Shown piece after piece: positions 3,495-10,422 of a DNA stretch of 43,623 nucleotides (positions within the stretch are counted from its first letter, which is position 1; each line of letters opens with the position of its first letter). The stretch comes from a virus (Duplodnaviria > Caudoviricetes). The DNA lies in the IMG/VR virus record IMGVR_UViG_3300011439_000031, positions 1 through 43,623 of that record. The stretch is one strand, 5' to 3'. The notes under the pieces are model-generated. The model searched no databases. It was not told the origin of the DNA and was given only the letters and a program-made list of their open reading frames with translations. The translations under genes and the position numbers were made by a program.

Positions 3495-3661
3495 GACTCC
3501 CTCTCAAGTTGTTCGAGTTCATTTCTTTTTTCTAACTTAGCTAGACGATACTCTAGTTCGTTCATCTTTCTAGTATGATTTACAAGATGTTGTGATACAG
3601 CTTCTACCCAAGCTATTCTCGTCTTTCTCTCAAGTTGCTGCTGCTTACGCTTACTCACTAG
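3491..3661 (-). CDS. Small coiled-coil hypothetical protein (start uncertain)
   Basis: Track ORF 3491..3688; a start near the helicase stop is more likely. Confidence 0.5.
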   Translation of the reverse strand, partial: LVSKRKQQQLERKTRIAWVEAVSQHLVNHTRKMNELEYRLAKLEKRNELEQLERES

Positions 3662-5604
3662 ATCACACCTTCCAAGAAGTTTCTCCATTCGGAGGCCGGA
3701 CGGATTTCCTTGCTTTCCATGATGGACTCAAAGGCTTCACTCTTCTCATCCAACTTAGCCTGCATGAACAGGTCGATACTATCGTTGTTCTTCAAGTCAT
3801 ATACGATGACAGGCTCTGTCTGACCTTGCCTCCAAATGCGGCCAATTGCCTGCTCATTCCTTGCAGGACTCCACCACTTATCAATGAGAACTCCTGTTGC
3901 AGAACCACCAACCCAACGCTCAGGGTTCTTCTGAAGGTTAAGCCCTTCGCACATAGCCAAGTTCACACACAAGACGTCAATCTCTCCGGCCTGAAACTTC
4001 TTCTCGAAATCTCCGGCGTTCTTCGTGTCACCAAAGATAACTTCACACTTCTTGCCATTAGCGTCGCAACGACGCTTCACTTCATGCATTGGCTCATTGA
4101 AGGTACAAAAGACAACTACTTGATCGTCAGCGGCGTAGATAATATCCATCGTCTCATCGATCTTCGAGCTATCCTGGATATCCAACCTAACTTCGTGCTC
4201 GGTAACTGGATCGGTGATCTTGATACCTGCTGGCCATGAATTGATCTGACGCAAACGGGTTAATTGTGCGATGATGGCCGCAGCAGTCAGGGGGATTTGT
4301 CCCTGCTTATCAAGCCAGATAAAGAACTGGAAACGCATCTGCTCATACACCTTAGCTTGTTCGCTATTCATATCAAGCATACGTTGGATGATTGTAAGCT
4401 CAGGAAGTTCGAGCCCAACTTCCTTTCTGTTCCTACGAATCATCTGTCCCTTAAGTGCGGACTTAAGAATCTTCTCAGAATCAACTACCAACTGGAACTG
4501 TCCCGCAACACTTCTGTAGGAAGTGAACTGACGCTCGAATAGACGGAAATTCGGGAACTTATCGGGATCGAAGATGTGAAGGTAGCTCCACATTTCCTCA
4601 GGCTTATTCACCATTGGAGTACCAGAAAGGAACAGGTTGAATCGTGCATTATGGCACAGGTTCTTACAGGCTTCCCAGATCTTTGTTGGGCCTGAACTAT
4701 TCGCTCCACCCTTGAGCTTATGGACTTCATCAATTACGATGTAATCCCACGCTGTCTCATTGACCTTAGGAGTTGTACGAACAAACTCGTAGTTGACCAA
4801 GAGAATATCGACGCCGATACCCTCATACATATCGAGTAAGAAATTGCGATCGGACTCACTGACTGTAGACTTCAATGGAGTCATTACTTTGCAATCTGGC
4901 CACCAAGTCTTGATTTCTGCCGGAGTAGAACCAACCAAGCTTTTCTTCGTAAGCCACAGAACCTTTGGCTTCTTACCAGAATTTTGATCCTGATAAGTCT
5001 TGCTCAGAATGTACAGGGTAACGATTGTCTCGAATGTCTTACCAAGTCCCAGGTCATTTGCATTCAGGATACCGTTGCGGCCTTCATTGAAAGCGTTGAC
5101 GGTAAAGAGAATGTCGTCATGCTGGTACATATGGGCCTGGAAGTAAGCAGGGAAGTTCTGGCAGATAAGCTCCAACTCCTTTGAGAGTTGATCGAGAGTT
5201 TCGGCCTCGAGTTTTTGTGCATGAAGTTGTGCTTCCAACCTCGCACGCTCAGCAGCGGCCAGTCTTTCTTCTTCAAGCTTCCGCTCAATCTCTCGCATGG
5301 AAAGAGTCAGGTCGTTCTTCTTCTCTTGCAGCTTCAATAGCTTCTGCTCAAACTCCAAACGAAGTTGCTCTTGCAAAGTTGCCAAGTTGTCACGTTCACT
5401 TTTCAAAGTGGCGAACTGAGTTTCAAGATCAACGTTAACTGAGTTCTGCTGAAACGCAGGGAAGATTGCCTGCTGTACTGCATGATTAGGTGTAGGCCGT
5501 TTCGACTCAATAATTGCGATAGGCTTATTCTCTTCTAGAGCATCAAACTCCCCAGCAAGGGGATCATTTGCAGGCGGGATAGACTTAGGAATCTCGAAGT
5601 TCAC
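3658..5604 (-). CDS. SNF2-family (SF2) helicase/ATPase with N-terminal coiled coil
   Basis: DLGLGKT (motif I), IDEVH (II), LSGTP (III), EGLNLQ (V), QAIGRIWRQGQ (VI). Confidence 0.92.
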   Translation of the reverse strand: MNFEIPKSIPPANDPLAGEFDALEENKPIAIIESKRPTPNHAVQQAIFPAFQQNSVNVDLETQFATLKSERDNLATLQEQLRLEFEQKLLKLQEKKNDLTLSMREIERKLEEERLAAAERARLEAQLHAQKLEAETLDQLSKELELICQNFPAYFQAHMYQHDDILFTVNAFNEGRNGILNANDLGLGKTFETIVTLYILSKTYQDQNSGKKPKVLWLTKKSLVGSTPAEIKTWWPDCKVMTPLKSTVSESDRNFLLDMYEGIGVDILLVNYEFVRTTPKVNETAWDYIVIDEVHKLKGGANSSGPTKIWEACKNLCHNARFNLFLSGTPMVNKPEEMWSYLHIFDPDKFPNFRLFERQFTSYRSVAGQFQLVVDSEKILKSALKGQMIRRNRKEVGLELPELTIIQRMLDMNSEQAKVYEQMRFQFFIWLDKQGQIPLTAAAIIAQLTRLRQINSWPAGIKITDPVTEHEVRLDIQDSSKIDETMDIIYAADDQVVVFCTFNEPMHEVKRRCDANGKKCEVIFGDTKNAGDFEKKFQAGEIDVLCVNLAMCEGLNLQKNPERWVGGSATGVLIDKWWSPARNEQAIGRIWRQGQTEPVIVYDLKNNDSIDLFMQAKLDEKSEAFESIMESKEIRPASEWRNFLEGVI

Positions 5605-7780: not shown

Positions 7781-7834
7781 CTTTCTTGATAGTTCTAAGT
7801 GGTTTTTCCTTTCTTGATAGTTCCAAGTGGTTTT
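7781..7834. repeat. 26-bp direct repeat x2 (CTTTCTTGATAGTTCYAAGTGGTTTT)
   Basis: 7781-7806 and 7809-7834 with one mismatch; the core TTTCTTGATAGT also occurs at 771-782. Confidence 0.9.
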
Positions 7835-7860
7835 AGGGCTGTTATGTTATAATGATGAAT

Positions 7861-7921
7861 GTTATACCTTACCCTTAACTTTTAGAGGCATAAGCCCAGG
7901 TCAGGGGGGGTGAGGTATAAC
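7861..7921. repeat. Inverted repeat GTTATACCTTACCC / GGGTGAGGTATAAC
   Basis: 14-bp arms with one G-T pair. Confidence 0.75.
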
Positions 7922-8179
7922 TCTGTTATGTTCAGACACTTCGTAACTGCTAACTGTAGTGTGTTTCTTTTACAAGAAAACATACACTAACAGTTGCAAA
8001 AATACCCAATGAAAGCCCAATAATTAGCCAGACCCCTGTACGAAACCAGCCGCCGAAAAACGTAAAGCTCACGCCGTAACATTTAATTCAATATAAGAGG
8101 CAATAATCAATTTAATTTAACCGAATAACAGCGACGGTCTTTCTCTGCTGAACGAACCGAGTAACTGCGACCCGCGCAG

Positions 8180-8217
8180 CGAAACTAAAGGGCCCGACTC
8201 TTTCGAGCCGAGCCCTT
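8180..8217 (-). terminator. Probable intrinsic terminator with GAAA tetraloop
   Basis: Minus strand AAGGGCTCGGCTC-GAAA-GAGTCGGGCCCTT then TAGTTT; the G-U pairs work only on the minus strand. Confidence 0.65.
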
Positions 8218-8336
8218 AAAGGGTTGGGTAGGGTAGGGGGTATTTCTGTCCCCCTACCCTCTTCGGGACCCACTACGCTAGATTCCCTAGGTATTTCTGG
8301 CCTAGTTCTAGTCGCTAATGATGACTCCAAGCTAGC

Positions 8337-8633
8337 TTAGAATTCTCCCGCTAGGGGATCATTCTCCACTACGATGGCTTCGACAACTGGCGTCGAATTC
8401 ACGTTAGGCTTGCGGATACGCTTTACCGTATCGCCCCTTGCGGGCTGCAATCCTTGCGCAATCAAATCAAATTGCGCATCGTGGAGCTTGCGAAGATCGC
8501 TCACGTAATCGCCCAGCGTATCGATATGCTTGGCAATCTGGGCAACCTCAGCGTCGCTACCATCCTTGAAGATTCCCGGGATCAATCGCCCATAGGCTTC
8601 AAATTTCGCCCGGAAAGTCTGCTTATCAGTCAT
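8337..8633 (-). CDS. Early hypothetical protein ending in NDPLAGEF
   Basis: Strong GGAGGTGA RBS; own promoter; downstream hairpins. Confidence 0.85.
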   Translation of the reverse strand: MTDKQTFRAKFEAYGRLIPGIFKDGSDAEVAQIAKHIDTLGDYVSDLRKLHDAQFDLIAQGLQPARGDTVKRIRKPNVNSTPVVEAIVVENDPLAGEF

Positions 8634-8786
8634 TAGTTCACCTCCCTTCGTCTGATCTAGTAGGAACGAAACTCTCCCTAACCTTGTTTCCCGGCCGTAG
8701 GTGGCGCCGTATCGGGAACCGCTTATTAGGCGGTATAGATCGTGCGGGCCTTGCGGACTCGGATGCCATGCGGTTTCGCTGAGAGA

Positions 8787-8816
8787 ATTATGCCCAGATC
8801 GCCGAAAGATTGTCCA
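8787..8816 (-). promoter_or_regulatory. Promoter TGGACA-N18-CATAAT
   Basis: -35 at 8811-8816 and -10 at 8787-8792; implies a ~145-nt leader before ATG 8633. Confidence 0.7.
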
Positions 8817-8826
8817 GATATTTCTT

Positions 8827-8842
8827 TGTGACGTCCGTCACA
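8827..8842. promoter_or_regulatory. CRP/GlxR-type site, perfect TGTGA-N6-TCACA
   Basis: TGTGACGTCCGTCACA. Confidence 0.8.
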
Positions 8843-8843
8843 C

Positions 8844-8877
8844 CAAACAAACGTTCGTCGATCGAACAAACGTTCGT
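8844..8877. promoter_or_regulatory. Two Gram-positive-type LexA (SOS) boxes
   Basis: CAAAC-AAAC-GTTCG (8844-8857) and TCGAAC-AAAC-GTTCGT (8862-8877) versus TCGAAC-N4-GTTCGA. Confidence 0.8.
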
Positions 8878-8893
8878 TGTGACAAATGTCACT
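8878..8893. promoter_or_regulatory. Second CRP/GlxR-type site
   Basis: TGTGA-CAAATG-TCACT, one mismatch. Confidence 0.7.
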
Positions 8894-8928
8894 TGACAAG
8901 CCTACCGAATAACTGCGACGCTGTCTTT

Positions 8929-8943
8929 TGAGAATGATTCTCA
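8929..8943. promoter_or_regulatory. Fur-family 7-1-7 box
   Basis: TGAGAAT-G-ATTCTCA perfect palindrome. Confidence 0.75.
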
Positions 8944-8948
8944 TTACC

Positions 8949-8989
8949 TGATAACGATTTCATGAGAACGATTTCTGAAATCGATTTCA
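8949..8989. promoter_or_regulatory. Three tandem LacI/GalR-family (cre-like) operators
   Basis: TGATAACGATTTCA, TGAGAACGATTTCT, TGAAATCGATTTCA: 14-mers with central CG; the last is a perfect palindrome. Confidence 0.7.
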
Positions 8990-9039
8990 AGCGAACCCAA
9001 TAACTGCGACCCGCCTGCGGCGTAATCTCTCCCGCGAGT

Positions 9040-9063
9040 AACTCAGCCCCGAAGGGCTGAGTT
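9040..9063 (-). other. Stable hairpin with C(UUCG)G loop on the minus strand
   Basis: AACTCAGCCC-TTCG-GGGCTGAGTT. Confidence 0.75.
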
Positions 9064-9186
9064 CTCCCGGCATCGGCACCAGCGCCAATCTTCGGCGCAT
9101 TCGTCGCACAAGCTGAACACGAATTGCGTGGAAGGTTTGGGCGGGGATTTCTCCCCGCCCTTCCCTTTCTCAGTCGATGTACTCAT
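9043..9186 (-). CDS. Possible 47 aa Cys-rich micro-protein (absent from the track)
   Basis: MSTSTEK...CDECAEDWRWCRC...; no clear RBS; overlaps hairpins. Confidence 0.35.
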   Translation of the reverse strand: MSTSTEKGKGGEKSPPKPSTQFVFSLCDECAEDWRWCRCRENSALRG

Positions 9187-9397
9187 CGACGTTCGAGCTG
9201 AGTGAAGCTCGGCACCAGCGCAAGTCGCGCTCGATCAGCTGAACAACGTTGCGCAGGGCATCGGCGTGCTTCTGCGCACGATTTGCCTTCTTGACGAACG
9301 CATCCCGCTCGACCTTCGCCGTGGCGAGATTCTCCGCCAGCTGATCGACAACCTCTTGCGTGATTGCGTCATCGTGGTAACGGTGGTTCAGGTACAT
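9170..9397 (-). CDS. Early hypothetical coiled-coil protein, GC-rich
   Basis: GAGAGGG RBS; first leftward gene; followed by a GAAA hairpin at 9139-9160. Confidence 0.8.
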   Translation of the reverse strand: MYLNHRYHDDAITQEVVDQLAENLATAKVERDAFVKKANRAQKHADALRNVVQLIERDLRWCRASLSSNVDEYID

Positions 9398-9472
9398 GGT
9401 TTGGTTTCCCTCTCAGGTTTGGTGTCGGCCTTTCCGACAAGGATTACTCTACTCCTTCAATGCGTCAATTCC

Positions 9473-9488
9473 GTTACGCCAATGTTAC
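9473..9488. promoter_or_regulatory. GlnR/MtrA-like (OmpR-family) direct repeat
   Basis: GTTAC-N6-GTTAC (GTAAC-N6-GTAAC on the minus strand). Confidence 0.5.
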
Positions 9489-9498
9489 GAGATGATGT

Positions 9499-9532
9499 CG
9501 GTTTATTATGCACCCCTCTGCATAAACATGAA
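9499..9532. promoter_or_regulatory. Tandem ARG-box-like (ArgR) site
   Basis: ...TTATTATGCA-CCCCTC-TGCATAAACATGAA versus TGCAT-N4-ATGCA at a 20-bp period; the first box matches only in its right half. Confidence 0.55.
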
Positions 9533-9534
9533 AT

Positions 9535-9554
9535 GAGAATGAGAACCATTCTCA
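9535..9554. promoter_or_regulatory. Fur-family box
   Basis: GAGAATGAGAACCATTCTC matches GATAATGATAATCATTATC at 15/19 positions. Confidence 0.7.
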
Positions 9555-9563
9555 ATTTCTAGG

Positions 9564-9601
9564 CTGACTGACTAATCAGTCAGTGACTGACGCGTCAGTC
9601 A
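9564..9601. promoter_or_regulatory. Two abutting palindromes resembling TetR-family operators
   Basis: CTGACTGA-CTAA-TCAGTCAG (9564-9583) and the perfect 18-mer TGACTGACGCGTCAGTCA (9584-9601). Confidence 0.55.
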
Positions 9602-9705
9602 GGATTGGTTGATCCCGCAACGAAAAAAGGCGACTAGACTTCGTTTTGTCTGGTAATATCACAGAAGTTTTTTCAGAAAAATTTCACTTTTTTTAAATTG
9701 AAAAC

Positions 9706-10422
9706 TTGCAAAACCTTCAAGAAACTGCTTTACTGGCACAAGTGGCTACCTCTTTCTCTGTACCCCCAATTCGAGTATCTGCAACACCCATAGAAGAACT
9801 CCCCAACCCGGATCGTCTTCTCTCAGACGAACGCTGGATGCAATTTATCACAGACCTAGAGTACACTTACTGGGATAGAGGGGAATACCTCTCCTCCCAA
9901 GATATGGCTGAACTCTACTCTCTAAAACTCGATGAAGCTGAAGCCCTTCTTTTAAAGGCTAACCCAGTCCTAGAAAAGCGCGGCTTACCTCCAACTACTC
10001 GTAAGACCTTGTTCAAGGATCAGTTCGATCCTATGTTCGTTCTAGCTGTGAACAAGCTCTCAGATCCAATGGATAAGAGAAGTAACGCTGTTAAACTAAA
10101 GGACCTAGGACTAAGCACTAAATCTTTCCAAGCTTACCTAAAACTGGAGAAGAACCGGAGTTACTACGAGCGTCGTCTTAGTGAAGCTTTTGAAACAACA
10201 GAGTACTCCGCTAAGACTTCACTCATGCGTAATATCGAGTCGGGAGATCTAAACTCCATCAAGTACTTCCATGAGTACACGGGCCGCTTCAACAGTACCG
10301 AGTCGACCGCTTTCAACTTCATCCTAGTTCTCCAAAAGGTGATGGAAATCTTGGCGCGGCATGTAGATCAGAAGGTTCTTGATTTGGTCGCCTCAGAGTT
10401 TGAGAAGGAAATCTCCGAGTGA
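9706..10422 (+). CDS. Putative terminase small subunit (start uncertain)
   Basis: First rightward gene; HTH-like segments and a C-terminal ...ESGDLNSIKYFHEYTGRF motif of the kind seen in TerS-like proteins. Confidence 0.55.
   Translation: MQNLQETALLAQVATSFSVPPIRVSATPIEELPNPDRLLSDERWMQFITDLEYTYWDRGEYLSSQDMAELYSLKLDEAEALLLKANPVLEKRGLPPTTRKTLFKDQFDPMFVLAVNKLSDPMDKRSNAVKLKDLGLSTKSFQAYLKLEKNRSYYERRLSEAFETTEYSAKTSLMRNIESGDLNSIKYFHEYTGRFNSTESTAFNFILVLQKVMEILARHVDQKVLDLVASEFEKEISE

Follow-up and report, generated by a model that had tools for sequence, protein, structure and literature searches.

Gene layout and the array in the divergent gap

The window, by which we mean the whole stretch of 43,623 nucleotides analyzed, is a complete 43.6-kb genome with terminase, portal, capsid, DNA polymerase, primase-helicase and WhiB genes. 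It represents an entire actinophage of podovirus-like type with a distant relationship to Arthrobacter phage Jasmine. Among cultured phages, capsid comparison (34–38% identity) links it to Arthrobacter podoviruses of cluster AV, Microbacterium phage Shocker and Cellulosimicrobium phage DS1; since these are actinophages, the host is probably an actinobacterium. Jasmine, Shocker and DS1 share the gene layout of the window, although terminase is 31% and capsid 34–38% identical. With 31% identity in terminase, 35% in capsid and no Lsr2 domain among the early genes scanned, the phage falls outside Jasminevirus and cluster AV. Scans of 59 phage proteins gave no integrase match and no repressor gene, and no gene of the TetR, Fur or ArgR families was seen among the phage proteins scanned. 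A family-specific terminase pattern matched 119 stretches in viral contigs and none in 185,579 prokaryote genomes, so that no prophage form was found, which is consistent with a lytic life.

Array 2 occupies the gap that separates a leftward 75-aa gene from the divergent, rightward gene for the terminase small subunit, whose length from 9742 equals that of its homologue P0001 (226 aa) (Table 1). A preliminary description of this DNA had proposed that the design of array 1 recurs here directly upstream of a small early gene, and the 75-aa gene does lie directly downstream. A search with its protein matched only itself, making it an orphan without a homologue, and a homology search with the 98-aa early protein gave nothing above lead level. 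The GC3 of the first early gene, compared with 0.38–0.42 in the late and replication genes, points in a genome of 0.44 GC to a GC-richer host.

Table 1. Features of array 2, the predicted genome end and the neighboring genes; negative positions are relative to the predicted leftward start
Feature	Position	Strand	Remarks
Second early gene, 98 aa	8337–8633	-	Loose family of clade first genes
Array 1: CRP-, LexA- and Zur-like boxes	8827–8990	.	Upstream of promoter 8816–8787
Small early gene, 75 aa, first inward from predicted end	9170–9397	-	GC3 0.75
6-bp hairpin at predicted leader 5′ end	9423–9439	-	Kept in three runs of relatives
Predicted −10 hexamer, leftward early promoter	9446–9451	-	Start near 9439
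Direct repeat, 5 bp with 6-bp spacer, GlnR/MtrA-box-like	9473–9488	-	Centered near −41
Pair of 18-bp ARG-like boxes with 2-bp spacing, as in ArgR operators	9497–9534	.	Centered near −76
Palindrome, 7-bp arms, 6-bp spacer, inside ARG-like pair	9506–9525
Zur-type box	9534–9554 (15-bp core 9540–9554)	.	Near −108
Putative TetR-family operator 1, palindrome 18/20	9564–9583	.	Near −134
Putative TetR-family operator 2, perfect 18-bp palindrome 18/18	9584–9601	.	Near −153
Motif A, clade-conserved right-edge element	9607–9634	+	Predicted right end of terminal repeat 9634
Weak palindrome, 4-bp arms	9608–9621
Predicted sigma-A-type promoter, terminase small subunit	9706–9734	+	Leaderless start 9742; same layout in relatives
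Terminase small subunit	9742–10422	+	Weak PHROG match

In relatives, the first leftward gene is preceded by a sigma-A-like promoter and then a leader hairpin. The −10 hexamer of the window was placed by hand from this layout and from the end, at 9452, of a block conserved in three runs of close relatives (X2, X3 and X4). A canonical −35 element at 17-bp spacing is absent, and a promoter scan returned no site in array 2. On the other side of the gap, the terminase small subunit appears to be leaderless and expressed from a host-type promoter (9706–9742), as in L135, L115 and L147, which is odd for a packaging gene.

All elements listed in the preliminary description of 9473–9625 were recovered at their coordinates. 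Between 9473 and 9601 the boxes tile approximately 112 of 129 bp, nearly edge to edge. The region 9473–9625 contains six centers of exact palindromes with arms of at least 7 bp, three of which arise as by-products where two repeats abut, and is the densest 153-bp segment of the genome. Dinucleotide shuffles of the region (2000) gave a mean of 0.09 centers and a maximum of 2, and 12 whole-genome shuffles gave at most 2 per 153 bp; in the genome itself, other clusters of at least three centers occur only in and immediately beside array 1. Taken singly, the GTTAC-type direct repeat (one in the genome, approximately one expected) and the weak palindrome at 9608–9621 (three in the genome) are at chance level. 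Array 2 is no GC dip, as GC is 0.49 at 9398–9472, 0.44 at 9473–9625 and 0.44 genome-wide, and the AT-rich part of the gap (9626–9741, GC 0.32) lies mostly beyond the predicted genome end. Searches of the window for Rfam families and for tRNAs returned none.

Two further features of the early region may be mentioned. The C-terminal eight residues of the 98-aa protein (8337–8633) recur near the start of the helicase (3658–5604, repeat D4) and may be a docking motif. A one-directional repeat of 10–17 bp (8120–8175, 8906–8922, 8997–9013 and 9035–9051), with a core similar to the latter half of motif A, is found at the far end of early units in the window, L097, L098, L115, L010 and L003; it is possibly the site of a phage protein or a rightward phage promoter.

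Matches to host operators

The preliminary description read these elements as operators for host regulators. Its ArgR, Fur-family and TetR-family assignments hold in tests against host genomes, but its FadR/lipid link, an iron-responsive Fur and an operator at the last palindrome were rejected or found no support.

For the Fur-family box, the family stands and the metal changes. Positions 9535–9553 match the Fur consensus at 15 of 19 positions, the second-best match in the genome after 8930. The actinobacterial Zur box is described in Streptomyces as a 15-bp motif of 7-1-7 form (PMC5472717); 9540–9554 differs from it at one weakly conserved position, and 8929–8943 in array 1 matches it fully. 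The array 2 core has matches in 9 of 251 actinobacterial genomes (reversed control, 0), and is present exactly in L340, L342 and L343. Seven of the nine host loci adjoin ZupT-, AztC/ZnuA-, AztD- or ZigA-like genes for zinc uptake or chaperones, as judged from 39 of 56 ORFs scanned with most matches below curated cut-offs; at one locus, the top match of a neighbor was a manganese carrier. Given the motif fit and the zinc genes, we rejected the iron-Fur reading of 9535–9553 in favor of Zur.

In actinobacteria, the ArgR operator is described as a pair of 18-bp ARG boxes with 2 bp between them (PMC3293853). We built a model de novo from sequences upstream of argC, using 25 of 30 and leaving out the five from unpublished genomes; it ranks 9497–9534 first in the window at 18.3 bits, with the next site at 7.9, which upholds an ArgR-like assignment. 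Host training sites score −8.9 to 41.0 bits (median 27.1), and the model also finds array sites in L145, L135, L133 and L204 (14.0–21.9 bits), against a background elsewhere of up to 12.1. Alone, the inner palindrome is unspecific, as one of its four exact host matches precedes argC. The pair spans approximately −58 to −95 of the predicted start and does not overlap the promoter, as an ArgR site on a repressed promoter would.

The 20-bp pattern of TetR box 1 occurs in an estimated 320 or so stretches of the bacterial genome collection, as extrapolated from 25 of its 64 parts, compared with approximately 9 expected by chance if base frequencies are equal. Among the 80 loci with flanks, 42 (41 without L218) have a TetR_N domain encoded in an adjoining ORF, in agreement with the proposed family, and TetR-type palindromes precede TetR genes also at L205 and L207. 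In 46 Actinomycetes genomes, the core has four sites versus three for the control, arguing against a class-wide regulon. A comparison with Bacillus subtilis FadR had suggested a lipid link, but only 2 of 22 actinobacterial loci (L234 and L245) adjoin beta-oxidation genes. Amine-catabolism-like neighbors are commoner there; three loci lie beside carbon-nitrogen hydrolases, four beside Rieske oxygenases, one beside an amine oxidase and one beside an aldehyde dehydrogenase. In Thermoleophilia and uncultured Actinomycetes, the box appears to belong to an undescribed carbon-nitrogen hydrolase/Rieske oxygenase regulon with a BetI-type regulator (L219, L220, L229, L234, L248, L261, L268 and L281).

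The GlnR/MtrA assignment fares less evenly. This box is described as a 5+6+5 direct repeat (S. venezuelae consensus, PMC10704036; also PMC9151340), and the minus strand of 9473–9488 fits the S. venezuelae consensus. The pattern has 11 matches versus 2 for the control in 46 genomes, 2 of the 11 being from unpublished genomes. However, the host loci are mixed: among nine checked (31 of 40 ORFs), one site precedes a nitrogen gene (glutamate synthase), two resemble 16S rRNA and the remainder lie by sugar carriers, hpf, an acyl-CoA ligase, a ROK pair and one unknown.

Box exchange among relatives and the predicted genome end

Our survey of the family covered 51 non-redundant loci with at least 2 kb upstream of terminase. 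Loci with at least 38% terminase identity often carry a palindrome-filled gap of 250–400 bp; in a sister clade (terminase 33–37%), the gap is approximately 30 bp and without an array there. Motif matches number 19 in 12,217 bp of switch gaps versus 67 in 423,025 bp elsewhere, a count that is indicative only, as the gene caller was rough (it miscalled several gaps, including that of the window) and some motifs were tuned on the same loci. Searches with the array pattern gave no match in viral contigs and seven in metagenomes, comprising one relative (L204), the window's own DNA (L206, excluded from the comparison) and five bacterial sequences; a single-sequence search with terminase gave two loci, too short to reach the array.

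The preliminary description had proposed comparing box content among related phages, and the sets differ both between relatives and between strains. L010 has CRP- and IdeR-like boxes, L154 has two DasR-like boxes and L204 has four TetR boxes plus an ARG-like one; further relatives have CRP-, LexA- or IdeR-like boxes at the same spot. The labels CRP, LexA, IdeR, DasR and DnaA on boxes of relatives are putative and follow consensus motifs. In X2, X3 and X4 (the latter two from one study), 9453–9532 is replaced by 83 other letters with both flanks kept, and in X3 and X4 TetR box 2 is replaced as well. The Zur box is unchanged in all three.

Position is more constant than identity. In 24 hand-chosen units, 36 of 42 recognized boxes are centered at least 50 bp upstream of the predicted start; one of the remaining six is at −41, four lie over the core promoter and one is downstream. 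Most boxes lie 50–240 bp upstream of the predicted early promoters rather than on them, and repressors bound at least 50 bp upstream of a start are not generally known to block polymerase. The proposal that the arrays sample host signals loses ground, since box identity is swapped among relatives and most boxes are too far upstream for ordinary repression. Arrays of the same kind are also found farther from the end, at 0.7 kb in the window and at up to 3 kb in L097, and a promoter-like site follows each of them.

Two other observations concern the relatives. DnaA-box-like sites lie approximately 1–2 kb inward of the array, beside short tandem repeats, in L003 (34190–34450), L098 and L115; none was found in the array of the window. 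In L099, L113, L152, L154 and L085, early proteins of 240–270 aa have an N-terminal half that by eye resembles that of the Lsr2-like protein of Jasmine, without the Lsr2 DNA-binding domain, and are possible silencer antagonists.

Where does the genome end? Motif A lies at the right edge of the gap in 12 of 13 members of the window's clade (support 0.98), and motif B marks this edge in nine uncultured relatives. Jasmine is described as having a 1,330-bp direct terminal repeat (PMC5513430), which we verified in its sequence: the Lsr2-like gene, which reads leftward, lies inside the repeat, whose end is 26 bp beyond motif B and immediately precedes the first rightward gene. The 484-bp repeat of Shocker ends 32 bp after motif B. 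In Jasmine, Shocker and DS1, a conserved element precedes the repeat end, which lies just left of the first gene read rightward, and we predict this arrangement here. Three independent contigs from close relatives stop together, an X4 record at 9634 and an X2 record and L204 at 28 and 27 bp, respectively, from the start of motif A. Other close-relative records run through 9634, as a terminal repeat would allow, and contigs also break at strain branches. From the three contigs and the analogy with Jasmine, we infer that 9634 is quite likely the right end of the genome. In T7, early genes lie at the end that enters first. As the early genes of the window read inward from 9634, this end, by analogy, probably enters the cell first.

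The weak palindrome at 9608–9621, previously listed as a last operator, is probably part of the genome-end signal, given motif A, the three contig stops and the matching repeat end of Jasmine. The palindrome has lost its right half in X2, X3 and L204, which speaks against the operator reading, and it lies within the motif A end element. Contig depths in X2 are higher over 7887–9776 than outside, but were set aside, per-contig depth being no copy number. A candidate left boundary of the terminal repeat is 7781–7921, where a pair of 26-bp direct repeats, together with an inverted repeat rich in GC, resembles the short repeats and hairpin around the left end of Jasmine.

Possible roles of the array

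What could such an array do? Our leading, though still tentative, reading from the sequence is that array 2 is an occupancy platform that helps the first early promoter to fire. Host regulators, whichever are present, would bind the operator strip at the DNA end that likely enters first, and the bound proteins would contact RNA polymerase; alternatively, they would break up Lsr2-type silencing of the AT-richer phage DNA. The signals of the array 2 regulators are unrelated and share no common condition. This, along with the dense tiling, the free exchange and duplication of boxes and their upstream position, fits occupancy better than it fits logic. As related phages swap sites freely, the phage probably recruits host proteins for its first genes. 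Both variants have parallels: Zur is reported to activate from upstream sites through the alphaCTD (PMC9371925; PMC5472717), and a repressor bound in a silenced promoter can reportedly counter-silence an Lsr2-like protein (PMC7002338).

Relief of silencing is suggested by the low genome GC, the GC3 of the first gene, the Lsr2-like first gene of Jasmine and the lower GC described for phages that encode Lsr2 (PMC8612146). Jasmine (45.9% GC) is described with this gene inside its terminal repeat (PMC5513430), whereas the first gene of the window is an orphan; by eye, Jasmine has no clear array upstream of its first promoter despite its low GC. As in the CgpS study (PMC7002338), a bound repressor could switch a promoter on, with occupancy outweighing identity. 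However, that system is engineered and has a single site, within a GC dip and close to the silencer peak, and distant sites are described as giving mostly low output; array 2 is natural, with many sites reaching to −153, three of five boxes beyond −100 and no dip near the start site. A report that host Lsr2 helps mycobacteriophage infection (PMC10066036) also counts against silencing relief. It is conceivable, but doubtful, that a low-GC lytic actinophage family tiles its first-entering DNA with interchangeable operators so that occupancy by host repressors keeps a xenogeneic silencer off the first promoters, a non-coding and protein-free device whose place in Jasmine would be taken by the Lsr2-like protein.

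A different possibility, which we regard as unlikely, is a multi-input sensor, with each regulator gating early expression by zinc, arginine, nitrogen or DNA damage and timing lysis as Spo0A does for phi29. Single-regulator precedents are described: Spo0A sites in Bacillus phage phi29, CtrA sites in phages of Alphaproteobacteria ("lytic deferment") and LexA sites in several phages (PMC9437464), all of which, like the window, carry a host operator near promoters without a phage gene for the regulator. The GlnR/MtrA-like repeat near −41, where the −35 element is missing, and the unchanged Zur box would fit. But lytic deferment involves one regulator, conserved in a phage group, and a clear signal, whereas the arrays combine four or more unrelated ones, tiled, swapped between close strains and mostly upstream of the core promoter. 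Duplicated boxes also contribute no logic, and the scans that gave no repressor or integrase gene and no prophage form count against a sensor as well.

Because the array abuts the predicted genome end, host proteins on naked entering DNA might also block exonucleases, end-sensing defenses or back-sliding. Here too occupancy, not identity, would matter, but this role seems rather unlikely, as equal arrays lie inward before promoter-like sites and Shocker and DS1, which are GC-richer and by eye have short gaps, manage without one. The injection-stop repeat region of phage T5, a non-coding, palindrome-rich stretch of terminal-repeat DNA with host-type sites, is similar to array 2, and proposals akin to shielding or ratcheting have reportedly been made for it; we know of no two-step injection of the T5 type in the window's family.

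It is improbable that replicated copies of the array serve as decoys, drawing off host repressors so that regulons such as those for zinc uptake and arginine synthesis become derepressed. Near-perfect, duplicated sites, most of them for repressors, and two copies per genome if the array is within the terminal repeat would suit a decoy, for which position relative to a promoter would be irrelevant. However, arrays recur just upstream of early promoters rather than at arbitrary places, the TetR site marks no class-wide regulon and Zur is described as abundant (PMC5472717). That the boxes are not host sites at all, being instead phage-protein operators, packaging signals or RNA hairpins, is very improbable. 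Both strands of the region do fold well (z −4.7 and −5.3), as any palindrome cluster would, and 9607–9634 probably serves in packaging or marks the end. However, the boxes match host operators that adjoin their own regulons, the phage proteins scanned include none of the TetR, Fur or ArgR families, the palindromes differ from strain to strain whereas the end element is shared across the clade, and the region lies upstream of the predicted transcript start.

Co-option of a single host regulator by phages is already established (PMC9437464). Among the largely open-access papers searched, none was found that describes shuffled arrays for several regulators in phage terminal repeats, though supplementary motif lists for cluster AV phages could hold such sites. 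Phages are known to borrow host regulators singly; here, members of an entire clade retain reshuffled sets of putative host operators at their probable genome end. Box sets may help to assign hosts to uncultured phages. If box identity counts, lytic phages would integrate several host signals; if, as we tentatively favor, occupancy counts, the arrays would represent a new route by which foreign DNA escapes silencing or survives entry.
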